Assembly (NCBI GenBank): GCA_016200085.1
Contig: JACQFL010000050.1
Location: 115,088-179,087, forward strand
DNA from: Candidatus Rokuibacteriota bacterium
GTDB lineage: Bacteria > Methylomirabilota > Methylomirabilia > Rokubacteriales > CSP1-6
DNA length: 64,000 bases
Reading direction: 5' to 3'
The notes below the pieces were generated by a model, which made no database searches, was not told the origin of the DNA, and worked only from the letters and a program-made list of their open reading frames with translations. The translations under genes were made by a program, and so were the position numbers. The number at the start of each line of letters is the position of its first letter. Within the stretch, counting starts at the first letter, position 1. Of this stretch, positions 7,073 through 63,922 are shown piece by piece.

Positions 7073-9718
7073 ATGCCGAGCCAGGTCGCCGTCCTGCGCA
7101 CGCGCCCCGAGACCGTCGTCGAGGACTACGGGCGCCTCATGCGGCTGGTGAAGTACGACCAGATCCTCTCGCGCGACACCGATCTCATCCTCAAGCTGAA
7201 CCTCTCGTGGACGAAGTACTTCCCGGCGTGCTCGAGCCAGCCCTGGCAGGTCGACGGCATCCTCAAGACGCTGGTCGACGACGGCTACGAGCGGCGGCGC
7301 CTGCTCCCCGTCGAGAACAAGACCGTGGTCACCAACCCCGACGAGGGCTGCCGCGCCAACAAGTGGCGGCCCGTGCTCCAGCGCCACGGCGTCGGCTTCA
7401 CCGCGCTGCCCGACGTCGAGTGGATCGTCTATCCGTTCAGGTCGCCCCTGCTGAAGCTCAACCGGATCTTTCCCGAGGGCATCCAGATCCCGAAGCTGTA
7501 CCCGGGCAAGAACGTGCTCCACCTGCCCACCGTGAAGTGCGTCCATCCAGATACGGAGATCTTGCTCAGCGACGGCAGATTGATTGGTGCTGAGAGCCTC
7601 GTGAAGGAGTGGCAGGTTCGGGAGCCCGTGCAGTGGCTGCCTGACGGCGATGCCGTCAGTGAAGGTGAGACGAGCGTGGTCTCACTTCGACCAGACGGGC
7701 TCCGCGGTGATCATGCCACCCACTTCTGGCGTACCCCGGTGACCGATGGGCTCGTGTGTGCCATCCGGACTCGTACTGGTCGGCAGGTGACGACATCGAC
7801 GGCACACCCATTCCTTACGCCTGAGGGTTGGAAGCGCGCGACAGACATACGTGTCGGCGACAGAATCGCGGTGGCCCGAAGAATTAGAATTCAAGGTCGC
7901 AGCCAACCGTTGCCCGCAGTCCCAGCGCTGGGCCACGACTCGCTCGATCTCGAGCAGTTGGAGTTTGAGGAGCAACCGCGGTTAACCGTACACGCCCAGC
8001 GCTCGATTGTTCGTGACTATCTCGACGGCGAAACGGTCGCGGAGATCGCTCGCAGGCTTCATGTGGGGCGAAAGATAGTACTGCGATTGCTCGACCGGTG
8101 CGGTGTCACTCTACGTGGTCCGTGGGTGTGGGCCCGTGTTCCCGGCGAGACATCGACGGACTTTTGGCGCTGGATGGGCTACTTCGTTGCGGAGGGTTGG
8201 GCGAGAGAGAACCATGGGTCGTTGGCGATCAACGTCGCCAACAACGATCCCGAGATCCGATCTGATTACATGGCTTTGTGCAAATCGCTATTCGGAGTAT
8301 TGCCTAGAGAGAACGCTGGGACGCTGCGGTTTAATGCCTCGAATTTGAGAAGCTTGTTCGCGCATCTCGGTTTTCGTCCGCCGACGAACGCTGCGACGAA
8401 GCATGTGCCCGATGTGTTGTTCAAGTGCCCCGATGAGGAAATCTCGGGATTCCTATCGGGGTACTTCGACGGGGACGGCACAGTTGGACCCGACGGTGTA
8501 CACGCAACCACGAAGAGTCCGCGCTTGGCCAGTCAGATCCAGATGCTGCTGGCGCGTCTCGGTGTACTCGCGTTTGTAGGTGTGTCGCGCTGCAAGGCCA
8601 CCAATCGCCCATGGACGAAGACTCAGGACTACGCAAAGATCTCGATCTATGGGCAGGATGTCGTTACATTCGCGCGTTGGGTCGGGTTTCGTTGCGCCCG
8701 CAAGCGAGCCCGGCTCCAAGAACTGGTACGTCGGCGGGCGAACGGCAGGCAACCAAGTCACTGGGATACTGTTCCAGTGCCTCCCGCTTTGTTTCGATTC
8801 GTGCGGGAGGGGCTCAAGATCACCCATCGCAGTTCGGAACGCCAGAGTGCGGTCAGCAACATTGAATGGAAACATACTGAACCTACTCGACCAGTCGTTC
8901 AGTATTTCGTTGATCTATTCGAACGACATGATACGAGCGGCCGTTTCCGCGATGAGATCGCGTATATGCGCTACCTCGCGCAAGACGACATTGCGTGGGA
9001 TCGAGTGTCGGACAAGGCTGAAAAGGCAGCTGAAGTCCCGTACCTCTACGATCTTTCAGTACGCGATTCGCGGTCGTTTATCGGCAACGGAATCGTTCTC
9101 CATAACACCCACGGCCACTCTGTCACAACGGGAGCGATAAAGAACAGCTTCGGAGGCTTGCTGAAGGAAGCCCGACACTATGCTCATGAGTTTATGCATG
9201 ACGTACTGGTTGACCTCATGTATATGCAGCGTGAGATCCATCCAGCCGCTCTGGCGGTGATGGACGGGACGGTCATGGGCGACGGCGCCGGCCCCCGTAC
9301 GATGGTGCCGCGCGAGGGCAACCTGATCCTGGCCTCGGCGGACCAGGTCGCCATCGACGCCATCGCCGCGCGGATCATGGGCTTCGACCCGCTCGCCATC
9401 CCGTACCTCCGGATGTGCCACGAGCGCGGGCTCGGGGTGGCGGACCCCCGCGACATCGAGATCGTCGGCGACGAGGACGCGGCGCGGGTCAGCATGGGCT
9501 TCAAGACCAGCCGCAGCCTGGTGATCTGGGGCGACCAGCTCATCCGGCGCGGCCCGCTCAGGCCGCTCAAGCGCCTGCTGCTGCACTCCCCCCTGGTGGT
9601 CTGGGCCCCCTTCGCCTCGAACGTCTACCACGACCTGCTCTGGTACCCGACGGTCGGCCGCGCCCGCATCCGCGCCTTCCGCGCCACGCCCTGGGGAGCC
9701 CTCTTCGAGAAGTACTGA
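7073..9718 (+). CDS. DUF362-family protein interrupted by an in-frame intein (precursor 881 aa; predicted spliced product ~358 aa)
   Basis: The N-extein (155 aa, ...ILKLNLSW...KNVLHLPTVK) and C-extein (203 aa, THGHSVTTGAIKNSFGGLL...VMDGTVMGDGAGP...) join to a normal DUF362-like protein. The internal 523 aa have intein splice-junction and LAGLIDADG motifs. Confidence 0.8.
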   Translation: MPSQVAVLRTRPETVVEDYGRLMRLVKYDQILSRDTDLILKLNLSWTKYFPACSSQPWQVDGILKTLVDDGYERRRLLPVENKTVVTNPDEGCRANKWRPVLQRHGVGFTALPDVEWIVYPFRSPLLKLNRIFPEGIQIPKLYPGKNVLHLPTVKCVHPDTEILLSDGRLIGAESLVKEWQVREPVQWLPDGDAVSEGETSVVSLRPDGLRGDHATHFWRTPVTDGLVCAIRTRTGRQVTTSTAHPFLTPEGWKRATDIRVGDRIAVARRIRIQGRSQPLPAVPALGHDSLDLEQLEFEEQPRLTVHAQRSIVRDYLDGETVAEIARRLHVGRKIVLRLLDRCGVTLRGPWVWARVPGETSTDFWRWMGYFVAEGWARENHGSLAINVANNDPEIRSDYMALCKSLFGVLPRENAGTLRFNASNLRSLFAHLGFRPPTNAATKHVPDVLFKCPDEEISGFLSGYFDGDGTVGPDGVHATTKSPRLASQIQMLLARLGVLAFVGVSRCKATNRPWTKTQDYAKISIYGQDVVTFARWVGFRCARKRARLQELVRRRANGRQPSHWDTVPVPPALFRFVREGLKITHRSSERQSAVSNIEWKHTEPTRPVVQYFVDLFERHDTSGRFRDEIAYMRYLAQDDIAWDRVSDKAEKAAEVPYLYDLSVRDSRSFIGNGIVLHNTHGHSVTTGAIKNSFGGLLKEARHYAHEFMHDVLVDLMYMQREIHPAALAVMDGTVMGDGAGPRTMVPREGNLILASADQVAIDAIAARIMGFDPLAIPYLRMCHERGLGVADPRDIEIVGDEDAARVSMGFKTSRSLVIWGDQLIRRGPLRPLKRLLLHSPLVVWAPFASNVYHDLLWYPTVGRARIRAFRATPWGALFEKY
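7538..9106 (+). mobile_element. intein with LAGLIDADG homing-endonuclease domain (523 aa) inserted in the DUF362 gene
   Basis: Starts with Cys (CVHPDTEILLSDG). Block-B TxxH is present (TTSTAHPFLTPEGW). LAGLIDADG motifs are WMGYFVAEGW and SGYFDGDGTV. The intein ends GIVLHN and is followed by Thr (+1 nucleophile). Local GC is clearly lower than the flanks. Confidence 0.8.
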
Positions 9719-9748: not shown

Positions 9749-9813
9749 GGGGCGCCACGGGTTCCCCGGGGCGCCCCGAGCGTTGGGGGGCTTGGGGGCG
9801 CCCGGAGCCCCCA
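9749..9813. repeat. GC-rich double-hairpin intergenic element, copy 1 (second copy at 45716..45781)
   Basis: Hairpin ggggcgcc...ggcgcccc followed by the conserved gagcgttggggggcttgggggcgcccggagccccca. A near-identical block occurs at 45744..45781. Confidence 0.7.
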
Positions 9814-21179: not shown

Positions 21180-21470
21180 CCGCCCGCGCGGCGGCCCCGT
21201 CGCCCATCATTCCGGAGGTCGCGTCGCCGCGCGCCAGCCGTGTCGATCTGCGGCGCGGCGAGAGCCTGGTGACGGCGCTCGTGCGGGCGGGGGTCGAGCC
21301 CAGGATCGGCCAGGAGTTGCGGGCCGCGCTCGCTCAAGAAGAGCTTTCTCGAGTCGCCGCTGCAGTTCACGCGGATCACATCGGGCTTCACGTACGCGGG
21401 CCCGCATCCGATCCTCGGCGGCCTGCACCCGCATCTGGCGATCGACAGCGGTCCGATGTCGGTCACCAAT
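21180..21470 (+). pseudogene. degraded M23-peptidase gene relic (OapA/LysM-like fragment plus M23 active-site fragment, in different frames)
   Basis: Frame A: RVDLRRGESLVTALVRAGVEPRIGQELRAAL (OapA/LysM-like). Frame B: FTRITSGFTYAGPHPILGGLHPHLAIDSGP, matching the M23 consensus RITSGFG.R.HPILG...H.GID. There is no intact ORF. Confidence 0.4.
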
Positions 21471-21537
21471 CCGCGAAACTTCGGGGGCGCCCCGGCCGGG
21501 TGCTACGATGAGTTTTGCTTCTGTGAAAGGAGCTTCG

Positions 21538-23196
21538 GTGGAGCCAGCCGTCCGCCTGATCCCCCTCGGTGGCCTCGGCGAGATCGGGCTCAACATGATG
21601 CTGCTCGAATCGGGCGACGACGTCATCGCCATCGATTGCGGGCTCATGTTCCCGGACCCCGACGAGATGCCGGGCATCGATCGGGTCATCCCGGACTTCT
21701 CCTACGCGCTCGCCAAGCGCAACGGCTTTCGCGCCGTCGTGCTCACCCACGGCCACGAGGATCACATCGGCGCGCTCCCGTATCTGCTCGCCCGGGCCGG
21801 GGTGCCCGTCTACGGCACGCCGCTCACCCTGGCCCTGGTCGCCGAGCGGCTGCGCGAGCATGGCCTGCTCGAGAACGCGGACCTGAGATCCATGCGGGCG
21901 CGCGAGGCCTTCTCGGCGGGGCCGTTCCGGCTGGAGCCCATCAGGGTCACTCACTCGATCGCCGACGGTATCGGTCTGGCCGTGCACACCCCGGCGGGCA
22001 CGATCGTGCACACGGGCGACTTCAAGCTGGATCCGAGCCCGCTCGACGGCAAGACGCCCGACTACCGCCGCTTCGCCGAGCTGGGCGAGCAGGGCGTGCT
22101 CGCGCTCCTGTCCGACTCGACCAACGTCGACCGGCCGGGCCATACCCGCTCGGAGATCGAAGTGGGCGAGGCCTTGCGCCCGCGCTTCGCCCGCGCGCGC
22201 GGCCGCGTGGTGGTGGCGACGTTCGCCTCGCACATCCACCGCATCCAGCAAGTCCTGTCGCTCGCCGCCGAGTTCGGGCGGCACGTGGCGCTGCTCGGCA
22301 TGAGCATGCAGAAGAACGTCGCCATCGCCGCCCAGCTCGACTACCTGCGTGTGCCCGACGACATCCTGCTCCCGCTCGAGGAGCTGGTGGCGCTGCCGCC
22401 CGAGCGGCAGGCGATCCTCTCCACGGGCAGCCAGGGGGAGCACCACTCCGCCCTCGCCCTGATGGCCGCGGGCGAGCACCGGTCGGTGCAGATCGCCGCC
22501 GGCGACCTGGTGATCATCTCGGCGCGCGTGATTCCCGGCCACGAGCGCACCATCGGCCGCGTGGTCAACGCCCTGCTGCGGCTGGGCGCCGAGGTCCTCT
22601 ACGACGACAACGCGTTCGTGCACGTCTCCGGCCACGCGAGCCAGGAAGACCTCAAGCTCATGCTGAATCTCACGCGCCCGCGGTACTTCGTGCCCGTCCA
22701 CGGCGAGTACCGCCACTTGCTGGGCCACGCGCGCCTGGCGGCTTCGGTCGGACTGCCCGAGGAGCGGATCTTCCTCGTCGAGGACGGCATGGGGATCGAG
22801 CTCTCGGCGACGGCCGCGCGGACCGTCGGGCGCTACCCGGCCGGACGCGTGCTCGTGGACGGCAAGGGGATCGGCGACGTCGGCGCCGTGGTCCTGCGCG
22901 ACCGGCAGATCCTGGCCGAGGATGGCCTGGTGTGCGTCTCGCTGGCGCTCGACCGCGAGGGCAAGGTGGTCGCGGGCCCGGAGATCGCCTCGCGCGGCTT
23001 CGTCTACGTCAAGGAGAGCGAGGCGCTGCTCGACGAGCTGCGCGCGGCCGTGCTCGACGCGCTCGCCCGGCGCGAGCCCGCCCTGCCGTCCGACCGCGAG
23101 ACCATCGGCGCGCTCGTGCGCGCGCGCGTGCGCCAGTTCATCAACCAGCGCTTCGAGCGCAAGCCCATCGTGCTGCCCATCATCCTGGAGGTCTGA
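21538..23196 (+). CDS. rnj: ribonuclease J
   Basis: VEPAVRLIPLGGLGEIGLNMMLLESGDDVIAIDCG...VLTHGHEDHIGALPYL shows an MBL fold plus beta-CASP. The GTG at 21538 is preceded by RBS AAAGGAG. The ORF-track ATG at 21508 is less likely. Confidence 0.85.
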   Translation: MEPAVRLIPLGGLGEIGLNMMLLESGDDVIAIDCGLMFPDPDEMPGIDRVIPDFSYALAKRNGFRAVVLTHGHEDHIGALPYLLARAGVPVYGTPLTLALVAERLREHGLLENADLRSMRAREAFSAGPFRLEPIRVTHSIADGIGLAVHTPAGTIVHTGDFKLDPSPLDGKTPDYRRFAELGEQGVLALLSDSTNVDRPGHTRSEIEVGEALRPRFARARGRVVVATFASHIHRIQQVLSLAAEFGRHVALLGMSMQKNVAIAAQLDYLRVPDDILLPLEELVALPPERQAILSTGSQGEHHSALALMAAGEHRSVQIAAGDLVIISARVIPGHERTIGRVVNALLRLGAEVLYDDNAFVHVSGHASQEDLKLMLNLTRPRYFVPVHGEYRHLLGHARLAASVGLPEERIFLVEDGMGIELSATAARTVGRYPAGRVLVDGKGIGDVGAVVLRDRQILAEDGLVCVSLALDREGKVVAGPEIASRGFVYVKESEALLDELRAAVLDALARREPALPSDRETIGALVRARVRQFINQRFERKPIVLPIILEV

Positions 23197-25370
23197 TGCC
23201 TGCCACCATCGAGAGCGACGACAAGCCCCGGCGCGCGAGAAAGACGCGCGAGGGGCATCGCTGGCTGCGCGAGGTCAAGGCGATCGTCATGCTCGCCGGC
23301 GGCGGGTTCGCGGCCCTCGCGCTCGCGACGTTCGATCCGACCCGGAGTCCCGCGGACCAGCACGGCCCGGGCGGCCCCGTCGGGGTCTGGCTCGGCTGGG
23401 CGCTGTTCTGGGCGTTCGGCTACGCCGGCTTCCTCTTCCCCCTGCTCGTCGCGGTGGTGGGCGCCAGCGCCTTCGCGCGGCCCATCGTCGCGCGCGGCGT
23501 GACGCCCTTCGTCGGCATCGGGGCCCTGCTCGTCAGCGCTACCGGCCTGCTCGGGCTCCTGTCCGAGACGGATCTGCTGCGCGGGGGGGCCGTGGGGTGG
23601 GCCGTCGCGGAGGCCCTGCGCGCCAGCCTGGGCACGGTCGGGGCCTGGCTCGCCCTGGTGAGCGTCGTGCCGATCGGCGTGCTCTGCGTGACGCAGGTCT
23701 CGTACGCCGCGCTCTCACGCCACGTGACGGGGCGGCTGGCGCGCCTCCGGCGCCAGCAGGCGGCGGCGCGGCCTCGCCGCGCGGCCGCGACGATCGTGGA
23801 GACCGGCCCGGACGCGGCCCTCGCGCTGCCGGAGCCCGCGGAGGAGACCCCGCCCCCGCCCGTCGTGGTCGAGCCGCGCCGCGCGAAGTCGATGACGATC
23901 AAGGAAGGCCTCGCGTGGCAGGAGACCTTCGACTTCGGCAGGGGCGGCGCGGAGGCGTTCCAGCTCCCGCCCGTGGGCCTGCTCGCCACGCCCGCGGCGA
24001 CCGAGCGCACGGTGACGCACGAGGAGCTGCAGGAGAACGCCGAGACCCTGCGCCGCAAGCTGCAGGATTTCGAGGTCGAGGGCCGCATCGTACAGGTGAG
24101 CCCCGGGCCGATCATCACCGCCTACGAGTTCGAGCCCGCGGCGGGGATCAAGATCAGCCGGGTCGTGAACCTGGCCGACGACCTGGCCCTGGCCCTCAAG
24201 GCCGCCGCGGTGCGCATCGTGGGCCCGATCCCGGGACGCGGCACGGTGGCCATCGAGGTCCCGAATCGCGAGATGGCGACGGTCTACCTGCGCGAGATCT
24301 TCCTGTCGAGCGACTTCGCCGACTCCAGGGGCCGGCTGCCGCTCGCGCTCGGCAAGGACGTCACCGGCGGGCCCGTGGTGGCCGATCTCGCCGCCATGCC
24401 GCACCTGCTCGTGGCGGGCGCCACGGGGACCGGCAAGTCGGTCGGCCTCAACGCCATGATCTGCTCGATCCTGTACAAGATGACGCCGGCCGAGGTGCGC
24501 TTCCTGCTCATCGACCCCAAGCGCCTGGAGCTGTCGGTGTACGAGGGGATCCCCCACCTGCTCTCGCCCGTGGTCACGGACGCCAAGGAGGCGGCGGCGC
24601 GCCTGCGCTGGATCGTGGGCAAGATGGACGAGCGCTACAAGGAGCTGCAGCTCAAGCAGGTGCGCAACATCGAGGGCTACAACCGCGCCGTGGAGGAGAA
24701 GGACCGGCTGCCGTACTGGGTCGTCGTCATCGACGAGCTCGCCGACCTCATGATGGTCTCCGCGGGCGAGGTGCAGACCGCGCTGGTGCGGCTGGCCCAG
24801 ATCGCGCGCGCCGTCGGCATCCACCTGCTCGTGGCCACCCAGCGCCCGTCGGTCGACGTGGTCACCGGGCTCATCAAGGCGAACTTTCCCACGCGCATCG
24901 CCTTCCAGATGGCCTCGAAGGTCGACTCCCGCACCGTGCTCGACAGCAACGGGGCCGAGCAGCTGCTCGGCCGCGGCGACATGATCTACATGCCGCCCGG
25001 GGCCAACAAGCAGATGCGAGTGCACGGCGCGTGGGTGGCCGACGAGGAGGTGCGCGGGGTGTGTGACTTCCTCCGCACGCAGGGCACGGCCGTGTACGAG
25101 GAGGTCGTGCTGCCCACGAGCGAGGCCGACGGCGGCGAGGGGGGCGAGGCGGCCGAGCGCGACGATCTCTACTGGGACGCGGTGCACCTGGTGATCGGCC
25201 AGCGCCAGGGCTCGATCTCGTTCCTGCAGCGGCGGATGCGGCTCGGCTATCCCAAGGCCGCGCGCTTCATCGACATGATGGAGCAGGATCGCATCATCGG
25301 GCCGGGGGACGGGGCCAAGCCGCGCGAGGTCCTCGTGGGCCCGGAGTATCTCGCGAAGCGCGGGAAGTAG
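23196..25370 (+). CDS. ftsK: DNA translocase FtsK/SpoIIIE
   Basis: N-terminal TM segments, a motor domain (AGATGTGKSVGLNAMICSILYK, DELADLMMV) and a C-terminal gamma domain. ATG overlaps the rnj stop (TGATG). The ORF-track start at 21456 is artefactual. Confidence 0.85.
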   Translation: MPATIESDDKPRRARKTREGHRWLREVKAIVMLAGGGFAALALATFDPTRSPADQHGPGGPVGVWLGWALFWAFGYAGFLFPLLVAVVGASAFARPIVARGVTPFVGIGALLVSATGLLGLLSETDLLRGGAVGWAVAEALRASLGTVGAWLALVSVVPIGVLCVTQVSYAALSRHVTGRLARLRRQQAAARPRRAAATIVETGPDAALALPEPAEETPPPPVVVEPRRAKSMTIKEGLAWQETFDFGRGGAEAFQLPPVGLLATPAATERTVTHEELQENAETLRRKLQDFEVEGRIVQVSPGPIITAYEFEPAAGIKISRVVNLADDLALALKAAAVRIVGPIPGRGTVAIEVPNREMATVYLREIFLSSDFADSRGRLPLALGKDVTGGPVVADLAAMPHLLVAGATGTGKSVGLNAMICSILYKMTPAEVRFLLIDPKRLELSVYEGIPHLLSPVVTDAKEAAARLRWIVGKMDERYKELQLKQVRNIEGYNRAVEEKDRLPYWVVVIDELADLMMVSAGEVQTALVRLAQIARAVGIHLLVATQRPSVDVVTGLIKANFPTRIAFQMASKVDSRTVLDSNGAEQLLGRGDMIYMPPGANKQMRVHGAWVADEEVRGVCDFLRTQGTAVYEEVVLPTSEADGGEGGEAAERDDLYWDAVHLVIGQRQGSISFLQRRMRLGYPKAARFIDMMEQDRIIGPGDGAKPREVLVGPEYLAKRGK

Positions 25371-25375
25371 TCGTT

Positions 25376-25497
25376 CGCGGGGGGCGGGGGGCGGCCGGGG
25401 TGCCGCGATCCACCGACTCCATGGGCGGCGGCCTGAGACGTCGGGCGGCTTGCACGACCATGGATCGCGGCACCCCGGCCGCCCCCCGCCCCCCGCG
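25376..25497. repeat. 37-bp perfect inverted repeat (arms 25376..25412 and 25461..25497) with a 48-nt spacer, G-run rich
   Basis: The left arm cgcggggggcggggggcggccggggtgccgcgatcca is the exact reverse complement of the right arm. It lies 5 nt after the ftsK stop. Confidence 0.8.
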
Positions 25498-25544
25498 AAG
25501 ACGTGTTCGACCACGATGTCGAATACTCCGATCACGTGGCTTCG

Positions 25545-25614
25545 CAGGGCTCGCCACGGCGCCGACTTCAGGGCTCGCCACGGCGCCGACTTCAGGGCTC
25601 GCCACGGCGCGATT
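25545..25614. repeat. tandem direct repeat, 25-bp unit cagggctcgccacggcgccgacttc x ~2.8
   Basis: Two perfect copies and one truncated copy, read directly from the sequence, upstream of the VOC gene. Confidence 0.8.
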
Positions 25615-25698
25615 TCGATGCGTCGCGTTCGAGCGCGGGACGGTCGCTGCCATGGCGGTGGGGTACACTGGGGCACTCGTTGCTGCGGAGGTGTCGTC

Positions 25699-26607
25699 AT
25701 GGCAGTGCGGGCGCTGCTGCACTATGCTCTCGAGGTTCCCGATCAGACCGTGGGCGAGAAGTTCTACCGGAACTTCGGGCTCGTCGACGAGCCGGCCCGC
25801 GACGGGGCCGTTCACTTGAGGCCGGCGAGGCTCGAGCGCGAGTCCGTCCTCCTCTACGCGGGCCCGAGGAAGCGGCTGCACCATCTGGCGTTCGGCGCCG
25901 CCGGCGACGAGTTCGAGGCCACGCGCGAGTCGCTGCGGCGCGCGGGCGTCGGGGAGATGGATCCGCCGCGCGGCGGTCCCGAGGGCGGGATCTGGTTGCG
26001 TGATCCCGACGGGAACGCCGTGAACGTGCGCGCGGAGACGAGCGAGCTTCCGCCGCCCGATCCGCCGCTCACGCTGAACGCGCCGGGCCACATCAGCCGC
26101 GTCGCCCGGCGCGGCTACCCCGAGGCCATGGAGCCGCGGCCGCGCCGGCTCGGTCACGTGCTGCTGTTCACGCCGGACATCGACCGCCAGCTCGCCTTCT
26201 ACACCCAGGCCCTCGGCATGAAGCTGTCCGACCGCGCGCAGCGCGTCGTCGCCTTCCTGCGCTGCACGACCGATCACCACAACCTGGCCTTCCTGACGTC
26301 CGCCGGCCCGGGCTTCCACCACGGCTCGTTCGAGGTGGGCAGCGTGGACGAGATCGCCATGGGCGCCCTCGCGATGCAGAGGGCGGGCTGGCAGCCGGGC
26401 TGGGGCCTGGGCCGCCACGTGATCGGCTCGAACTTCTTCTTCTACATCCGGGATCCCTGGGGCTCCTTCGCCGAGTACTTCCACGACATCGACTACATCC
26501 CCGAGGACTGTGCCTGGCAGGCGCGCGACTTTCCCGAGCAGGACGCGCTCTACAAGTGGGGCCCGCCGGTGCCAGACGACTTCGGCCTCAACCGCGAGCT
26601 CGCCTGA
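25699..26607 (+). CDS. two-domain VOC family protein (glyoxalase/bleomycin-resistance/extradiol dioxygenase-like)
   Basis: MAVRALLHYALEVPDQTVGEKFYRNFGL...LGHVLLFTPDIDRQLAFYTQALGMKL shows duplicated VOC modules. An RBS GGAGGTG lies upstream. 302 aa. Confidence 0.7.
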   Translation: MAVRALLHYALEVPDQTVGEKFYRNFGLVDEPARDGAVHLRPARLERESVLLYAGPRKRLHHLAFGAAGDEFEATRESLRRAGVGEMDPPRGGPEGGIWLRDPDGNAVNVRAETSELPPPDPPLTLNAPGHISRVARRGYPEAMEPRPRRLGHVLLFTPDIDRQLAFYTQALGMKLSDRAQRVVAFLRCTTDHHNLAFLTSAGPGFHHGSFEVGSVDEIAMGALAMQRAGWQPGWGLGRHVIGSNFFFYIRDPWGSFAEYFHDIDYIPEDCAWQARDFPEQDALYKWGPPVPDDFGLNRELA

Positions 26608-26718
26608 CCGACCGTGGAGGGCCCCGACATGGTCCCCCGTGCTCCCCACCCGGAGCGACGCGGCCACGCCGTCGCACTCCTCGCTGCTCCGACAGGCTCC
26701 TCGCGCGGGCCGACGTAG

Positions 26719-27474
26719 GTGGCGCCGCATCGCGTGCTCGTGACCGGCATGAGCGGCCTCATCGGCACCGCGCTGCGGCGTCACCTCGAAGCCCGGTACG
26801 CGCTGCGCGCGCTCAACCGCCGCCCGGTCGCAGGCGTGGTGTGCTACCAGGCCGACCTCGCCGACCTCACCGCGATCCAGCCCGCCTTCGACGGCGTGGA
26901 CGTCGTCGTGCACCTCGCCGCCCAGACGGGCAACCCGCCGTTCGAGGAGGTGCTGCGTACGAACGTCGTCGGCACTCACAATGTGTTCGAGGCGGCGCGG
27001 CGGGCGGGCGTGAAGCGCCTGGTCTACGCGAGCAGCGGGGCGACGGTCAGCGCCTGCGAGCGCGACGAGCCGTACCGGGCGCTCGTGGAAGGCCGGTACG
27101 CTGACGTGAAGGACGGCTGGACCATGCTGACCCACGCCATGGCGGTACGGCCGGCCGGCCTCTACGGGGCGAGCAAGGTCTGGGGCGAGGCCCTGGCCAG
27201 GCACTACGCCGACGCCCACGGGCTGTCGGCCATCTGCCTGCGCATCGGACGCGTCCACGCCGAGGACCGGCCGCTCAGCGTGCGCGACTTCTCGGTCTGG
27301 TGCAGCCAGCGCGACATCGTGCGCATGATCGAGCTCGCGGTCGCGGCGCCGGACAGCGTCCGGTTCGACGTCTTCTACGTCACCTCGAACAACCGCTGGA
27401 GCTACCGCGATCTCGCTCACGCGCGCGACGTCCTCGGCTTCGAGCCGCGCGACACCGCGGAGGACTATCGCTGA
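26719..27474 (+). CDS. NAD-dependent epimerase/dehydratase family protein (SDR)
   Basis: RVLVTGMSGLIGTALRRHL (Rossmann GxxGxxG) and a YGASK catalytic YxxxK motif. Confidence 0.8.
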   Translation: MAPHRVLVTGMSGLIGTALRRHLEARYALRALNRRPVAGVVCYQADLADLTAIQPAFDGVDVVVHLAAQTGNPPFEEVLRTNVVGTHNVFEAARRAGVKRLVYASSGATVSACERDEPYRALVEGRYADVKDGWTMLTHAMAVRPAGLYGASKVWGEALARHYADAHGLSAICLRIGRVHAEDRPLSVRDFSVWCSQRDIVRMIELAVAAPDSVRFDVFYVTSNNRWSYRDLAHARDVLGFEPRDTAEDYR

Positions 27475-27499
27475 CCCTGCGCGATTCCACCATCGCGAC

Positions 27500-28097
27500 G
27501 AGCGTGCTGGTGGCCCTGCGCGTCCCCGCCACCGCCGTGCAGGCGCGACTGCCCGCGCCGTGGGAGCTCACGGCCACGGCGTCCGGCCCCCCGCGCGGCG
27601 CCAACCGGTACGTCGTCTTCCACGACGTGCTGCTCAATCAGGACGCCGAAGGCAGGCCGGCAGGCGACGCGAGCGGGCGCAATCTTGGCCTCGTGACCAG
27701 GCGCGGCATCCGGGCCACCGGCGTCTCGTGCAGCTTCAACTTCCGCAGCTACGCCGCGCATCCGTCCGCGCTGCCGGGCAAGTACCGCACGGCGGTGGCC
27801 GCCGAGATCCGTGCCGCGCGCCACGTCGAGGCGGCGCGCTCGGGCGAGGCGGTCCGGGATCGGATCGGGGTGGAGCCCGCGGGGGGAGGTCACGTGGCCC
27901 TCGATCTCCGGTACCGGCGCAGCGTGCCCGTGCGGCTGCCGTACGAGGCCGACGTCCGCTCGACGGTGGATCCCACGATCGTGCGGCACTACAAGGTCGA
28001 CCAGCTCGTGGAGGCGGCGCTGAGCGTCCTCTTCGATGGGAGCGAGGAGACCGTGGCCATCGGGACCCGGCCCATGTTCGTGCGGCAGGTCTCCTGA
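27500..28097 (+). CDS. hypothetical protein (start uncertain; GTG ~27500)
   Basis: An ORF in operon-like position after the VOC and SDR genes, with no recognisable motifs. The ORF-track N-terminal portion (from 27300) overlaps the SDR gene out of frame. Confidence 0.45.
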
Positions 28098-28125
28098 CGC
28101 CGCGCACCGTCGGCTCCCGCCGGGG

Positions 28126-29097
28126 TCAGCGCACGAGCCCGATCTCCTGGAAGTAGCGCAGCGCGCCCGGGTGGATGAGGCGGCGCTCCGGCGCCGCGGC
28201 GACGGTGTTGGCCGCCGTCGTCTCGCGCGCCTGTGGCAGCCGCTGCGCGAGCGCGGCCTCGCCGCGGTGCAGGGCGCGCGCGAGCCGGTAGGCGACGTCG
28301 TCGGCGAGGCTCGGCCGCGCCATCACGAAGCTCCACGAGCCGACCGATGGGATCGGCGCGTCCTGTCCCGGGTACGAGCCCGCGGGCACGGTCATCGGCA
28401 AGAGGAACGGGTGGCGGGCCTGGATCCTCGCGATGCCCGCCGGGTCCGGCGCGATGAAGCGTGCGCCTGCAGGCCCGCGCGCGACGGCGCCGAACCCGGG
28501 CCAGCCGATCCCGCCGCCCCAGAGCGCGGCCACCCGCCCGTCGAGGACCATCGCGGGCCCGTCGCCGGCGCGATCGAGGTGGATCGCCTGGAAGTCCCGC
28601 TCGGCGTCGAGGCCGAGCCCGTCGAAGACGTAGCGCGCCAGCAGGACGAGACCCGAGCCGCGCGCCCCGAGCGCCACGGCCTTGCCGCGCAGGTCCTCGA
28701 TCGTGCGGTGAGGGGAATCGGCGCGCACGACGAACATTCCGGGCGTGGTGTACATCGCCGCGAGGATGCGCAGGTCGGCGGGCGTGCGGCCCACCCCGGC
28801 GAGGGCCTCGTGGACCGCCTCGCCCTGCACCAGCCCCAGGTCGAGGGCGCCGGCCTCGAGCAGCGGGACGTTCTCGCCGCTGCCCTTCGTGCTCTGGGGC
28901 CGGACCTCGAGCGACGGATCGGTCTCGTTGATGGTCGCGGCGAAGGCCTCGCCGTACACGGGAAAACCGCCGCCCGGCGTCGCCGTGCCCAGCCGCACCA
29001 CGGTCCGTTCCGCGGCGCCCGCCGAGTGCGCCAGGGCCGCGGCGAGCGCGAGTCCCCCGATCAAGGCGAGGGCGAGCGAGGCGGCAGGGACGAGCAT
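28126..29097 (-). CDS. TAXI-family TRAP transporter solute-binding protein
   Basis: A signal peptide, then TVVRLGTATPGGGFPVYGEAFAATIN...VQGEAVHEALAGVGR, typical of the TAXI/Imp family. 323 aa. Confidence 0.75.
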   Translation of the reverse strand: MLVPAASLALALIGGLALAAALAHSAGAAERTVVRLGTATPGGGFPVYGEAFAATINETDPSLEVRPQSTKGSGENVPLLEAGALDLGLVQGEAVHEALAGVGRTPADLRILAAMYTTPGMFVVRADSPHRTIEDLRGKAVALGARGSGLVLLARYVFDGLGLDAERDFQAIHLDRAGDGPAMVLDGRVAALWGGGIGWPGFGAVARGPAGARFIAPDPAGIARIQARHPFLLPMTVPAGSYPGQDAPIPSVGSWSFVMARPSLADDVAYRLARALHRGEAALAQRLPQARETTAANTVAAAPERRLIHPGALRYFQEIGLVR

Positions 29098-29549
29098 GCG
29101 GCTACTCTACGTGATCCGTCGACATCGAGGGGAGCGACCGCCCCTCCCCCCGACGCGCCCCAACGGTTGCCGCCGGCGCCGACGCGGGTTCCGACCACGC
29201 GCGGGGGCCGGGACTGCGGGGCAGGCTGCCCGATCGGGCTCGGGCGGTCCGCCCGCGCCGCCCGACGGTGCGCTCGCCAACTCTTCGATTCGACGCGCAT
29301 CCGGTCATGGCACGCCTTCTGCCTTCCAAACGGCAGGCGATGCGAAGGCCCGGCGTGCGGTGACGGGACGCGCAACCGACCGGAGCGCCAGGGAGCGGCG
29401 CAGCGGGTGATGTGATGCAGATGGATCTCTGGTACGAGCTCATGATCGAGGGTACGACTCCGAGCGAGGCCACGGCCGATCTCCTGCAGGATGCGAACGA
29501 GCCGGTCACGGCAGAGGCGGCCGATCCGGACGAAGGGTAATGAATTGAC

Positions 29550-29990
29550 TCAGGTGAACCGCACGCCGTCGGTGACGGGCGCCAGCGACTGCGGCTGGGT
29601 GAAGCCGAGCTGGTAGCCCGTCACGACGACGCGGTAGCTCACCGCGCGCGGGCTCTGCGGCATCGGGATCACGAATCCCGTACTGCGATCCTCGGCCACG
29701 ATGCCCACGTACGTGGCGCCGCTCGCCACCAGGTTCCCCGCAGCGTCGACGGCCTCGCCGGTGAGCGTGACGTTGCGGGCCTCCAGCTTCCCCGTGTTGA
29801 AGATGCGCCCGACCAGCCGGATGTTGCTCCCGGTCTGCGGGTGATCGACGTTGAAGGTGATGCGGAACGGCGGGGCCTGACCCGGGGTCTGCGCCGGCGC
29901 CACGCCGGCGATCATGACGGCCATCGCGAGGAGGACACCGACGACGAGGCGCGCGGTGCGGCTCCAGGCGGCGGCGGGCGAGCGCGTCAT
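29550..29990 (-). CDS. hypothetical secreted protein
   Basis: Starts MTRSPAAAWSRTARLVVGVLLAMAVMIAGVAPAQ (signal peptide). The upstream part of the ORF-track entry (to 30083) overlaps the convergent SBP gene start and is probably not translated. Confidence 0.45.
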   Translation of the reverse strand: MTRSPAAAWSRTARLVVGVLLAMAVMIAGVAPAQTPGQAPPFRITFNVDHPQTGSNIRLVGRIFNTGKLEARNVTLTGEAVDAAGNLVASGATYVGIVAEDRSTGFVIPMPQSPRAVSYRVVVTGYQLGFTQPQSLAPVTDGVRFT

Positions 29991-30081
29991 GGTCCCGACA
30001 AGAGTAACGCGAGGCGGCGACGAGCGGAAGCACTTGCAAGATGCCGGGCGAAGGGCTATTGAGAGCTCGCAAGGAGGCGTC

Positions 30082-31626
30082 ATGATCGCCGTCCGCGTCC
30101 GCTGGCCTCGTGCCCTCGTCGTCGCCCTGGCCCTCGTGCCGGTGACCGCGGCCGCTCAAGGCCGTCCCGTCCAGCTCACGATCTCCCAGCCCGCCGAGGC
30201 CACCACCATGGACCCGGGGCGCAGCACCCAGGTCCTCACCGTCAACTACTTCTACAACCTCTACGACACCCTCACGCGCTGGGACACGTCGCTCACGCTC
30301 CAGCCCGGCCTGGCGACGGCGTGGAAGAGCGTCAACGAGACCACGTGGGACCTCACCCTGCGCCTGGGGGTGCGCTTCCACGACGGCGCGCCGTTCACGG
30401 GAGAGGACGTCAGGGCGACCTTCGAGCGCAACCTCGTCGCCGGCAAGACCGTGGTCCAGCCGGGCTTCGCGACGATCGAGTCGGTGCAGGTCACGGGCCC
30501 GGCGAGCGTGCGCATCGTCACGAAGCGGCCGGACCCGTTGCTGCTGGTGCGCCTGGCCCAGATGGGCGCCCAGGTCCTGCCCGCGCGCCTCACCACCGAC
30601 GAGGGCGTGAAGGAGCTCGCGCGGCGGCCCGTCGGGACGGGGGCCTACCGCTTCGTGGAGTGGGTGAAGGACGAGCGGCTCGTCATGGAAGCCAACCGCG
30701 ACTGGTGGGGCTGGGACGGCAAGCCGCCGGCGATCGACCGCGTGATCTGGAAGCCGATCCCCGAAGATTTCCCGCGGCTCGTCGCGCTGGAAAAGGGTGA
30801 AGTCGACATCATCACGAACGTGCCGCCCGACCGCATCCCGTCGATCGCAGACGGCAAGAGCACGCGCGTCGTGAGCGTGCCCTCGACGCGGACGGCGGCG
30901 TTCGCGATGAACGCCACCCAGCCGCCCCTGGCCGACCGTCGGGTGCGCCAGGCGATGCACTACGCCCTCGACGTCCGCGCGATCATCAGGACGCTCCACG
31001 GGGGCTACGGCAAGCCGATGTCGGGTGGCCTCGCCGATACCGACTTCGGCCACAACCCGGCGCTCAAGCCGTACCCCTCTGACCCGGCGAAGGCCAAGGC
31101 GCTGCTCGCGGACGCCGGCCACCCCGGCGGCATCGACGTCGCGCTGCTCGCGGGCTACGGCACCATGGTCAACGACAAGGCCCTGCTCGAGGTGATCACC
31201 GACATGTGGGCGAAAGTCGGCATCCGCGCGCGGATCGAGATGATGGAAATGGGTCAGCGTCAGCGCATCGTCAACGAGCGCAGTCTGCCCGCGAACAGCC
31301 TCATGCTGATCAACCCGCAGTCCACCCTCCTCGACGCCGACGGCAGCCTGTGGCGCCTGCTGCACCCGACCGGCTTCAACGGCAAGTACTGGATCGGCAG
31401 CCAGCCCGGCCAGCGCTTCAACGAGCTGATGGAGCAGGCGCGCTACAGCCTGGACCAGAAGAAGCGCAAGGCGCTCTACACCGAGGCCACCCAGATCATC
31501 CACGACGAGAAGCCCTGGCTCGAGCTGTTCCAGGAAGTCATCGTCTACGGCACGTCCAGGCGCGTGAGCTTCAAGCCCCGGTCGGACTACCGGCTCATCG
31601 TGGCGGAGATGACCGTGACCCGGTGA
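30082..31626 (+). CDS. ABC transporter substrate-binding protein, family 5 (peptide/nickel/opine type)
   Basis: MIAVRVRWPRALVVALALVPVTAAAQG signal peptide, then the SBP_bac_5 fold (NYFYNLYDTLTRWD...). An RBS AAGGAGG lies upstream of the ATG. Confidence 0.8.
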   Translation: MIAVRVRWPRALVVALALVPVTAAAQGRPVQLTISQPAEATTMDPGRSTQVLTVNYFYNLYDTLTRWDTSLTLQPGLATAWKSVNETTWDLTLRLGVRFHDGAPFTGEDVRATFERNLVAGKTVVQPGFATIESVQVTGPASVRIVTKRPDPLLLVRLAQMGAQVLPARLTTDEGVKELARRPVGTGAYRFVEWVKDERLVMEANRDWWGWDGKPPAIDRVIWKPIPEDFPRLVALEKGEVDIITNVPPDRIPSIADGKSTRVVSVPSTRTAAFAMNATQPPLADRRVRQAMHYALDVRAIIRTLHGGYGKPMSGGLADTDFGHNPALKPYPSDPAKAKALLADAGHPGGIDVALLAGYGTMVNDKALLEVITDMWAKVGIRARIEMMEMGQRQRIVNERSLPANSLMLINPQSTLLDADGSLWRLLHPTGFNGKYWIGSQPGQRFNELMEQARYSLDQKKRKALYTEATQIIHDEKPWLELFQEVIVYGTSRRVSFKPRSDYRLIVAEMTVTR

Positions 31627-31664
31627 AGGGGCCGGGGCGCCCGTCGTACGGCTGAGGGGGCCTC

Positions 31665-36637: not shown

Positions 36638-38101
36638 ATGGCCGAAGTCAAGAGCGACCGGAAGCAAGCCCTCGACCTCGCGATCGCCCAGATCGAGCGG
36701 CAGTTCGGCAAGGGCGCGGTCATGCGCCTGGGCTCGGGATCCCCGCTGGAGGAGATCGCTTCCATTCCCACCGGGGCCCTCTCGCTCGACGTGGCCCTCG
36801 GCGTGGGCGGCCTGCCCCGGGGCCGGGTCAGCGAGATCTACGGCCCGGAGTCGTCGGGCAAGACCACCCTGGCCCTGCACGTCATCGCCGAGGCCCAGCG
36901 GCTGGGCGGCGTGGCGGCCTTCATCGACGCCGAGCACGCCCTCGACCCGATCTACGCGAAGAGGCTCGGGGTCAACATCGACGAGCTGCTGATCTCCCAG
37001 CCGGACACCGGCGAGCAGGCGCTCGAGATCGGCGAGACCCTGGTGCGCTCCAACGCCGTCGACGTCATCGTGGTCGACTCGGTGGCCGCCCTCGTGCCCC
37101 GCGCCGAACTGGACGGCGACATGGGCGACTCGCTCCCCGGCCTGCAGGCGCGGCTCATGTCCCAGGCCCTCCGCAAGCTCACCGCCGCCATCTCGCGCTC
37201 GGGCGCCGTCGTCATCTTCATCAACCAGATCCGCGAAAAGATCGGCGTCATGTTCGGGTGCTTTCACTACAGCACCCGCGTCGTCCTCGCCGACGGTCGG
37301 ACGGAGAAGATCGGCAAGATCGTCAACCAGCGGCTGCCGGTCGAGGTGCTGTCCTGGAATCCGGTCACGCGCAGGATCGAGCCGCGGCGTGTCGTGAACT
37401 GGTTCGACAACGGGCGTACCGAGGAGTTCGTCCAGTTCGAGGTCGAGGGAGGGCGCTCCGGTCGACGCTGCTTCGCCGCCACCGAGAACCATCTGATCTT
37501 CACGCCCGGTGGTCCAGTGAAAGCGTGTGATCTGCAGGCGGGTGATCACGTCTTGGTGTCCGTGGAAGACTTCTCACGCGCTGTCCCTGGACGCATCGTC
37601 AAGCGCTACGTCAAGCCCCCGACGCGCTCGATGCACCGGTTCGACATCGAGGTCGAGGGGCACCACACGTACCTGGTCGACGGAGTGGTGGTGCACAACT
37701 CGCCCGAAACCACATCGGGCGGGCGCGCGCTGAAGTTCTACGCCTCCATCCGGCTCGACGTGCGCCGCGTGGAGACGATCAAGCAGGGGACCGAAGCGGT
37801 GGGCGTGCGCACCAAGGTGAAGGTCGTCAAGAACAAGCTGGCGCCGCCGTTCCGCGAGGCGGAGTTCGACGTGATCTACGGCGAGGGCATCTCCAAGTCG
37901 GGCACCGTGCTCGACGCCGGCGTGGAGCAGGGACTCGTGGAGAAGTCCGGCACCTGGTACACGTACAAGGGCGAGCGCATCGGCCAGGGCCGCGAGAACG
38001 CCAAGAAGTGGCTGCAGGAGAACCAGCCGGTGCTCTTCGACCTCGAGGCGAAGCTCCGGGAGGCGCTCGGCCTCCGCGTGCCGGTCCCGCTGAAGGCCTG
38101 A
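36638..38101 (+). CDS. recA: recombinase RecA, interrupted by a mini-intein (precursor 487 aa; predicted spliced product ~340 aa)
   Basis: Walker A ([12 protein letters not shown]), [10 protein letters not shown], and ...KIGVMFG|[intein]|[23 protein letters not shown]. The exteins rejoin to the canonical RecA sequence. Confidence 0.9.
37259..37699 (+). mobile_element. RecA mini-intein (147 aa, no endonuclease domain) at the RecA-a site
   Basis: Starts [22 protein letters not shown]. Block B is [12 protein letters not shown]. It ends LVDGVVVHN, followed by Ser. Confidence 0.85.
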
Positions 38102-43354: not shown

Positions 43355-43441
43355 TCACTCGAAGGGGGCTTCGACGGCCCCCTCCGAGCCGCCCCCACCG
43401 AACCGTTGCGCCGGCAAAGCCGGCGCTCGAACCTCGAGGGC

Positions 43442-45715: not shown

Positions 45716-45781
45716 AGCGCCCTGGGTTTCCCAGGGCGCTTGCGAGCGTTGGGGGGTCTGGGGGGCGCCCGGAGCCCCCCA
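45716..45781. repeat. GC-rich double-hairpin intergenic element, copy 2 (copy 1 at 9749..9813)
   Basis: Hairpin agcgccctgggtttcccagggcgct, then gagcgttggggggtctggggggcgcccggagcccccca. A partial copy (gagcgtcgggggtctgggg) lies at 45689..45707. Confidence 0.7.
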
Positions 45782-54469: not shown

Positions 54470-54590
54470 TGATCGAGATGGGGGGTTCGACCCCCCCATG
54501 CCCCTTCCACGCTCGGCCCGCCCCGGCCAAGCCAAGGCGGGCCTCGATCTCGGGCGAACTGAGAGGGGGTTCGACCCCCCATACGCTCGA
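54470..54590. repeat. two copies of a GGGGGTTCGACCCCC hairpin motif in the rarA-ddl spacer
   Basis: gatggggggttcgacccccccatgc and gagagggggttcgaccccccatacgc lie ~90 nt apart. Confidence 0.6.
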
Positions 54591-61014: not shown

Positions 61015-61016
61015 GC

Positions 61017-61322
61017 GCTCGTCGCGTATCGGCGGTGCGAGGGCTGGGGGCCGGGGCGGCCTCGGGCGATCCGACTGACTGTGATTTCAAACGTCGTGTC
61101 CGCGCGCCACGATGCGCGCGCGACGCCTTCTCCCCGTACCCAACGGATCGCCCGAGGCCGCCCCGGCCCCCAGCCCTCGCACCGCCGCGTGGTGAGAGCG
61201 CGCTTTAGCGCTTGATTTCGCGCGAGTCGCGGCGCGCGGACACGCCCATGGAGATCACGGTCAGTCGGATCGCCGAGGCCGCCCCGGCCCCCAGCCCTCG
61301 CACCGCCGATACGCGACGAGCG
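61017..61322. repeat. nested inverted-repeat element (MITE/REP-like)
   Basis: Terminal arms of 63/64 bp (61017..61079 and 61260..61322) are inverted with respect to each other. An internal 43-bp copy of the arm core lies at 61145..61187, plus internal palindromes. Confidence 0.75.
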
Positions 61323-63620: not shown

Positions 63621-63922
63621 ATCTTGAGATCGGGGCGCGCGCTGCGCTGGACTCGTTCAAGCGAAGGGGGCAAGGCCCCCCCCTCGGACTCTCCCGGCCG
63701 ATGCCCCCCATCGCCGGACGGCTTTCGCGTGAAATGCCGGACGCGTGTCGCCCTGGCTCACCGCCCACAAGCGGATGGCGCCGGCGGAGCCGGCGCTCGG
63801 AAGACGCGCAGGATGTCCTTGCTGTGTCAAGAAATCCGACACGGAAAGGAACTCCACGGGGTTGCGACGAAGCCCAGAATTCGGGCTCGACTCCCCGGAG
63901 CGGCTGGCCTAGAATCCCCGCC

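Follow-up and report, generated by a model that had tools for sequence, protein, structure and literature searches.

A GC-rich perfect hairpin of 126 bases just past ftsK in a Candidatus Rokubacteria genome

Intergenic palindromic repeats and gene-end hairpins that lack a U-tract are already well known in other bacteria, and the locus described here opens no new biological question. RIME of the Rhizobiaceae, ERIC/IRU of the enterobacteria and the Correia MITEs are intergenic elements of 100-300 bp which carry long inverted repeats, lie at gene ends and are transcribed to hairpins. REP elements stabilise the upstream mRNA in enterobacteria. REPINs are composed of two conserved inverted ends around a less conserved spacer, fold overall into a hairpin, are extragenic and occur in clusters (PMC3116915). 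Typical terminators have a stem of 7-11 bp and a loop of 3-5 nt, a stem of 15 bp being called "extraordinarily long" (PMC10325885), and mycobacterial RNA polymerase does not terminate in vitro at hairpins without U-tracts (PMC3993855). Quasipalindrome template switching is an established way by which inverted repeats are perfected (PMC7202029).

The element considered here (hereafter E1) is a GC-rich perfect hairpin of 126 bases. It was analysed within a stretch of DNA of 64,000 nucleotides (hereafter the window) with a G + C content of about 72%, from a genome assigned to Candidatus Rokubacteria/Methylomirabilota by its FtsK homologs. The explanation preferred below is that E1 would be a real, lineage-specific, hypertrophied gene-end hairpin and one member of a small, REP/REPIN-like family of intergenic palindromes; our confidence in it is evenly balanced. 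Coordinates of the features are given in Table 1.

Table 1. Positions in the window of the two palindromes, their flanking genes and the short gene-end hairpins
Feature	Position	Strand	Description	Means of detection or support
ftsK CDS	23196..25370	+	724 aa; stop TAG 25368-25370	GC3 frame analysis and translation
E1 left arm	25374..25412	+	39 nt, G-rich, TTCGCGGGGGGCGGGGGGCGGCCGGGGTGCCGCGATCCA	Inverted-repeat search (100% complementary); exact-match search
Family core motif, E1 left unit	25393..25427	+	GGCCGGGG-TGCC-GCGATCC-ACCGAC-TCCATGGGCG	Pattern searches; common to E2 units
E1 loop (spacer)	25413..25460	+	48 nt, not palindromic	
E1 right arm	25461..25499	+	C-rich, exact reverse complement of the left arm	Identical in an independent MAG contig (L001)
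Tandem repeat downstream of E1	25545..25616	+	3 x 24 nt, perfect, CAGGGCTCGCCACGGCGCCGACTT	
Gene downstream of E1	25699..26607	+	VOC/glyoxalase-family protein, 302 aa	PF00903
E2	61016..61322	+	Nested palindrome, 307 nt; starts 1 nt past the stop of a large TPR protein gene	
E2 unit L	61016-61073			
E2 unit M	61144-61187			
E2 unit R	61273-61322			
Short G-run/C-run hairpin	9785-9812			Intergenic folding and G5+...C5+ scan
Short G-run/C-run hairpin	43364-43382			Intergenic folding and G5+...C5+ scan
Short G-run/C-run hairpin	45751-45780			Intergenic folding and G5+...C5+ scan
Short G-run/C-run hairpin	54480-54497			Intergenic folding and G5+...C5+ scan
Short G-run/C-run hairpin	54565-54580			Intergenic folding and G5+...C5+ scan
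Short G-run/C-run hairpin	63666-63683			Intergenic folding and G5+...C5+ scan

Geometry and setting of the hairpin

The start of ftsK overlaps the stop codon of the upstream RNase J gene. A longer ORF (21456-25370), which overlaps the RNase J gene, was discarded as a high-GC artefact using GC3 frame analysis and translation. The homologs of the encoded protein carry the domains FtsK_4TM, FtsK_alpha, FtsK_SpoIIIE and FtsK_gamma. From the position of the ftsK stop codon it follows that E1 begins 3 nt after it, and the element is extragenic, lying between this stop (25370) and the start of the VOC gene (25699). The closest homologs of the VOC protein (83%) are found in unrelated contexts and were uninformative; the protein is also encoded on contigs of the MAG GCA_016178425.1 and in three Logan assemblies, the contigs of which break inside the tandem repeat that separates E1 from the VOC gene. 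The window genes that were scanned are ordinary chromosomal genes, two of which carry inteins. The DUF362 protein (7073-9718, +) is split by an intein with a LAGLIDADG homing endonuclease, where the local G + C content is about 0.5-0.6 against 72%, and in RecA (36638-38101, +; 487 aa) residues 236-354 form a HINT-domain insert that separates the core from the C-terminal domain and is probably an intein.

An earlier reading made from the sequence only had reported a 37-bp perfect inverted repeat with a spacer of 48 nt, beginning 5 nt after the ftsK stop. The repeat is present with this spacer and is in fact 2 nt longer on each arm (39 nt); the distance of 5 nt holds for the 37-nt version, and that of the full repeat is 3 nt. 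The 37-nt arm has 2 exact matches in the window and 0 in 100 dinucleotide shuffles. In a census of inverted repeats with perfect arms and loops of up to 300 nt, arms of more than 15 nt were found at 2 loci of the 64 kb, namely E1 and the palindrome at 61016-61322 (hereafter E2). Among control loci of other bacteria totalling 1.46 Mb, a background set drawn from a scan of FtsK relatives in GTDB representative genomes (79 loci of other phyla and 1 of Rokubacteria), arms of at least 36 nt were found at one locus only. Long, perfect inverted repeats also lie between genes in control-set bacteria and one viral contig (L038 1228-1314, 7978-8084 and 16363-16428; L049 62-219 and 19927-20021; L100 2079-2265), and their arms are often made of short tandem heptamers or octamers.

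RNA folding, which had been proposed as a check, gave -129 kcal/mol (z = -10.3) for E1 and -126 kcal/mol for the opposite strand, and DNA folding gave -76.8 kcal/mol (z = -12.6); the window of a sliding 100-nt fold scan is too short to capture the element. The loop contains a small internal hairpin and has TCCATGGGCG on the left side only, and GATC and CCATGG sites are found at both inner arm ends. A possible extension of the palindrome into the flanks, suggested by the 8-mer CGGAGTAT located 31-32 nt outside both arms, was rejected as not significant, since 101 of 1729 genomic control segments reached an equal score.

The stem had been described as far larger than a terminator requires and as lacking a U-tract, and both observations proved correct: 39 bp with a loop of 48 nt compares with the usual 7-11 bp, the sequence downstream of E1 is GACGTGTTCGAC, with 3 T in 12 nt, and a terminator scan returned 0 sites. 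The 39-bp stem and 48-nt loop, together with the absence of a U-tract of 7-9 nt, do not agree with a canonical intrinsic terminator. Because there is no U-tract, and in view of the in vitro behaviour of the mycobacterial enzyme (PMC3993855), termination at E1 is itself doubtful. For the same lack of a U-tract, the hairpin probably works after Rho-dependent or read-through termination and not as a canonical intrinsic terminator. No promoter-like site was called at E1. At gathering threshold, Rfam contains no family for E1, and the search of the whole window yields tRNA-Val only; hits of miRNA-precursor models on E1 (41 bits for a threshold of 168) were set aside as matches of generic hairpin models.

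G-quadruplex motifs were defined as four tracts of at least 3 G with loops of 1-7 nt (relaxed to 1-12 nt). The quadruplex once suggested for the G-run arm was not recovered: 0 canonical motifs were found on either strand, where only two-tetrad patterns occur, and G4-aware folding keeps the hairpin. The absence of this motif bears on a wider alternative, according to which E1 acts as DNA, by way of a protein-binding palindrome, a cruciform or a G-quadruplex, in replication, recombination or the regulation of neighbouring genes. Perfect dyad symmetry, the GATC and CCATGG sites and the very stable hairpin of the single-stranded DNA count in favour of such a role, against which stand the missing G4 motif, adjacent genes that include no regulator or recombinase, the lack of conservation of E1 in relatives with the same flanking genes, and half-sites of 39 nt that are 87 nt apart, which to our knowledge resemble no operator site. 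A role at the DNA level is regarded as highly improbable.

A second palindrome and the short hairpins of the window

E2 is followed by a gene for an aldehyde:ferredoxin oxidoreductase (AOR) and folds with -269 kcal/mol (z = -18.7). Its unit L has a perfect match of 50 nt to unit R and one of 44 nt to unit M, in different, overlapping blocks; between L and R, the inner parts show a similarity of about 78%. In addition, the final 15 nt of the upstream gene, with its stop codon, recur in inverted orientation inside E2 at 61205-61219.

The motif similarity which had been pointed out between E1 and the element at 61017-61322 is real and statistically supported by pattern counts, a shuffle test and best-match ranking. 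The pattern GGCCGGGG-N(0-12)-GCGATCC is matched 5 times in the window (0.1 expected), always within an arm of E1 or E2, and GCGATCC-N(0-25)-TCCATGGGCG has 2 matches in the window, one in each element, for 0.00 expected. Local alignment of the left part of E1 with the right part of E2 gave a score of 37, which was reached by 0 of 2000 dinucleotide shuffles, and among 3196 window segments the best non-self match of the E1 unit is E2. Plain blastn produced no link between E1 and E2, and the exact blocks common to both are of 7-10 nt at most.

The relationship of E1 with E2 would place E1 in a small repeat family. On the evidence of these motifs the palindromic family would number five units or more, spread over two loci (E1 behind ftsK, E2 behind the TPR gene); the evenly balanced confidence stated above was assigned jointly to this family and to the rest of the preferred explanation. 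The support for the family comes from these two loci only. Its units have a G-rich outer part followed by GGCCGGGG..GCGATCC..(GAC)..CCATGG. Since the units face each other, the transcript of either strand would fold into a very long stem, G-first and C-last.

All intergenic regions of the window were then folded and scanned for G5+...C5+. Of the six short hairpins detected in this survey, five are located 9-117 nt past gene ends and one after tRNA-Val, and none carries a T-tract. Intergenic hairpins of opposite polarity (C-run first) are absent from the window. The hairpins at 54480 and 54565 are near-identical, with the sequence ATGGGGGG(G)TCGAACCCCCC. E1 and E2 are giant versions of these short gene-end hairpins, with the same position, composition and polarity. 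The proposal of an RNA structural element thus holds for E1 in one sense, as an extreme form of the short G-run/C-run hairpins without T-tract which are common at gene ends in this genome.

Relatives, assembly support and mobility

The closest syntenic relative (L006) has an FtsK with 84% identity and the gene order ftsK-VOC remnant-epimerase. Its VOC gene (3217-3297) is cut to an in-frame remnant of 26 codons which joins the N- and C-terminal ends, the middle being lost by internal deletion. The intergenic region downstream of ftsK in this relative is 147 nt long and contains two small hairpins and CAGGGCCCCCACGGGGGCGATTTTTT with a T6 run (an ordinary terminator); E1 is absent from this site. 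Homology between the E1 arm and this intergenic sequence is weak (6/1000 and 107/1000 shuffles), and a MAFFT alignment of both regions was poor and uninformative. By eye, the perfect tandem repeat downstream of E1 looks like a triplicated and decayed remnant of the ancestral ftsK terminator, which would correspond to the CAGGGCCCCCACGGGGGCGATTTTTT found at the matching place in L006.

In four other Rokubacteria (L007, L008, L015 and L095), the genes after ftsK differ from those of the window and no long inverted repeat follows ftsK. From these two observations the ftsK 3' end is, as far as the compared sequences indicate, a synteny breakpoint across Rokubacteria, and E1 is lineage-specific on the same grounds. 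At the place where E2 sits, a relative with 88% AOR identity (L096) has a 12-bp G-run hairpin, TCGGAGGGGGGC-TTCG-GCCCCCCTTCCGA, 5 nt past the stop of the TPR gene. Judged by the small hairpins at the orthologous sites in L006 and L096, E1 and E2 have both taken the place of ordinary small gene-end hairpins.

One of these Rokubacteria, L007, has a polA-like ORF (946 aa, compared with 851 aa in a relative) in which, at 3475-3668, a tandem repeat of 4 x 21 nt leads directly into a poly-G/poly-C palindrome that is imperfect. This region may represent either a genuine insertion of low complexity or an artefact of poly-G sequencing or of assembly. The 24-nt tandem repeat of the window may be tied to this 21-nt repeat adjoining a palindrome, judging by eye.

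A breakpoint at this position is among the points that favour a local origin, in which E1 would be a one-off inverted duplication left as a neutral replication or repair scar at a rearrangement-prone junction, without function, its likeness to E2 being a compositional coincidence. The gap between ftsK and lolA is about 6.3 kb here (25371-31664), with genes for VOC, an NAD-dependent epimerase, two hypothetical proteins and NMT1-type and SBP_bac_5 binding proteins, whereas a different Rokubacteria population has ftsK and lolA side by side; in addition, the triplication of the neighbouring terminator remnant would point to local instability, and E1 is unique across the searched collections. Coincidence is however contradicted by the motifs common to E1 and E2, which far exceed chance, and a single recent event should leave the loop-proximal parts identical, where identity instead falls from 100% to unrelated. 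We hold an isolated local duplication to be improbable.

Independent sequence for the locus is provided by the MAG GCA_016178425.1. Its contig L001 starts inside the E1 loop at window position 25425 and from there on, through 36 nt of loop, the right arm and the flank beyond it, is 100% identical to the window; the left arm and its junction with the loop are seen in the window assembly only. Another contig of this MAG (L005, JACOTH010000137.1) agrees with the window along about 7.8 kb apart from a single mismatch. The final 82 nt of ftsK (window 25289-25370) then differ at 22 positions, and the contig runs on into a lolA that is just 71% identical (DNA) to the copy of the window; this region is 7811-8228 in L005. 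The pattern suggests that L005 was joined chimerically, shortly before E1, to sequence of a different Rokubacteria population. Assembly of the independent MAG thus failed at E1, in keeping with what is expected of a real structure that resists sequencing.

The missing left arm, the contig that begins within the loop and the departure of L005 82 nt before the ftsK stop could also be taken as signs that E1 is an assembly or sequencing artefact produced by a spurious fold-back join. Fold-back artefacts of de Bruijn graphs are not known to yield a non-palindromic spacer of 48 nt such as that of E1, which counts against this reading. The identity of the right arm and of 36 nt of the loop in the independent assembly weighs against it as well, together with the flanking synteny of ftsK, VOC and epimerase confirmed in L006, the presence in the same window of a second element with common motifs, and the fact that Illumina contigs are expected to break at a hairpin of -129 kcal/mol. 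An artefact is accordingly considered very unlikely.

Mobility was assessed by searching for target-site duplications, further copies and mobility genes. Target-site duplications were found neither at E1 (...GTAGTCG / E1 / GACGTGT...) nor at E2 (CTAAG / E2 / TCGAT). Searches with mismatches, with blastn and with an nhmmer profile of the five units detected no further copy in the window or in the 113 fetched loci, the Rokubacteria loci included. The arm 22-mer had 0 hits in GTDB representative genomes (the source genome is not among the collections searched), and blastn against PLSDB gave no match with E1 or with E2. Six JGI metagenome hits of the arm 22-mer were rejected, five of them representing one unrelated locus of about 60% G + C and one being coding, none with an inverted-repeat partner or an Rfam match; thirteen IMG/VR hits of the composite motif were chance matches, likewise without an inverted-repeat partner. 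No transposase, integrase or RAYT was found among the approximately 50 window genes that were scanned or have a Pfam record.

These results do not favour the MITE-like or terminal-inverted-repeat element that had been put forward as a candidate: terminal inverted repeats are present, but there is no target-site duplication, no copy in the searched collections and no transposase in the window. More broadly, E1 could be a selfish non-autonomous mobile element, either a REPIN mobilised by a RAYT or another MITE, which inserted at or replaced the ftsK terminator and affects the host only incidentally. Some transposase families, including IS200/IS605 and the RAYTs, make no target-site duplication, which lightens the lack of one in this case. 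E1 itself has the REPIN architecture, with perfect arms of 39 nt, a non-symmetric spacer of 48 nt and a hairpin of -129 kcal/mol. These inverted conserved ends, the less conserved spacer, the hairpin, the extragenic location and a cluster like E2 (PMC3116915) agree with a mobile element, as do the related element 36 kb away and the absence of E1 from the orthologous site in relatives. They are opposed by the missing target-site duplication, by the failure of the profile search to find extra copies, by the 22-mer searches (0 hits in GTDB representatives and only unrelated ones in JGI metagenomes), by the absence of a transposase or RAYT among the window genes, and by the fact that E1 and E2 have no invariant end sequence, only exact blocks of 7-10 nt being common. 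The inverted copy of the end of the neighbouring gene in E2 is a further point against it, as it points to local copying. On balance we judge a selfish mobile element unlikely.

Proposed origin and role, and comparison with described systems

Under the preferred explanation, a gene-end hairpin enlarged within a small repeat family, the perfect arms would arise by repeated short-tract templated copying between inverted units, in tracts of about 40-50 nt, by quasipalindrome-type template switching or by gene conversion. The core common to both loci would have been spread by a REP-like copying process. The identity drop is abrupt in both elements, E1 passing from 39/39 to unrelated sequence and E2 from 50/50 (44/44 for L-M) to about 78%. 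If the 78% identity of the inner parts held throughout, a run of 50 matches would have a probability of 0.78^50, or about 4e-6 (own calculation). Because of this abrupt drop from 100%, a single old duplication does not fit; taken with unit L as the hub of two differently bounded blocks and with the inverted gene copy, it fits repeated templated copying, and it is probably such copying that keeps the arms of E1 perfect, to judge from these block boundaries.

As for the role of E1, the transcript would bear a 3' hairpin of extreme stability, which would mark the end of the ftsK message at the RNA level, would form a barrier to 3'-5' exonucleases and would shield ftsK from the VOC gene that follows. 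The most likely role in our analysis appears to be this insulation combined with defining or protecting the 3' end, canonical intrinsic termination being less likely. A perfect RNA duplex of 39 bp would be a substrate of RNase III. As an RNase III target, the E1 duplex could destabilise the ftsK message rather than protect it. A further point against the preferred explanation is that the 39-bp stem and 48-nt loop far exceed any functional need.

A more far-reaching alternative is that E1 and E2 are palindromic replicators of Rokubacteria that have so far escaped description, which would copy themselves into gene-end hairpins already in place and replace the native terminator, leave no signature of terminal inverted repeats or target duplication, need no transposase nearby and perfect their own arms by templated copying within the element. 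It is a speculative reading, which we think has little chance of being right.

If the preferred explanation is true, this would be the first palindromic intergenic repeat family described in the uncultured phylum Rokubacteria (Methylomirabilota), and a clear natural case of short gene-end hairpins giving way to very long ones with perfectly homogenised arms. Short-read assemblies are broken by such elements; in a public MAG, a contig end and a chimeric join fall at this very locus. Elements like E1 and E2 could be used as strain markers.

Compared with described systems, E1 resembles REP, BIME and REPIN sequences in being extragenic and near a gene 3' end and in having inverted ends around a spacer, and clusters are represented by E2. 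REP units are however of about 20-35 nt and imperfect, whereas the arms of E1 and E2 are of 39-50 nt and perfect. REPIN populations have many copies and an invariant 16-mer at their ends, which is the most abundant of the genome, in contrast with two loci in 64 kb that have short blocks in common. REPINs also have a cognate RAYT, none of which was found in the window, and the units of E1 and E2 are without a conserved 5' GTAG.

RIME, ERIC/IRU and Correia elements are similar to E1 as an intergenic size class with long inverted repeats. Similar copies of the RIME, ERIC and Correia families nevertheless number tens to hundreds in a genome, where no further copy was found for E1, and MITEs carry target-site duplications (TA for Correia), which E1 does not have.

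The hairpins without U-tract found at gene ends in high-GC bacteria ("I-shaped" putative terminators) and long-stem terminators (TerR, pLS20) are like E1 in being GC-rich and located directly past the stop codon. E1 differs from the "I-shaped" and TerR-type terminators by a stem of 39 bp and a loop of 48 nt, compared with the typical 7-11 bp and 3-5 nt (PMC10325885). Quasipalindrome template switching has in common with E1 and E2 perfection over short tracts, outward growth and block-wise identity, to which the inverted copy of the adjacent gene in E2 can be added (PMC7202029). It is however a mutational mechanism and not a family, and it leaves unexplained the related core at loci 36 kb apart. 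In the broad sense, E1 is a palindromic intergenic repeat and a gene-end hairpin which stands outside any named family.
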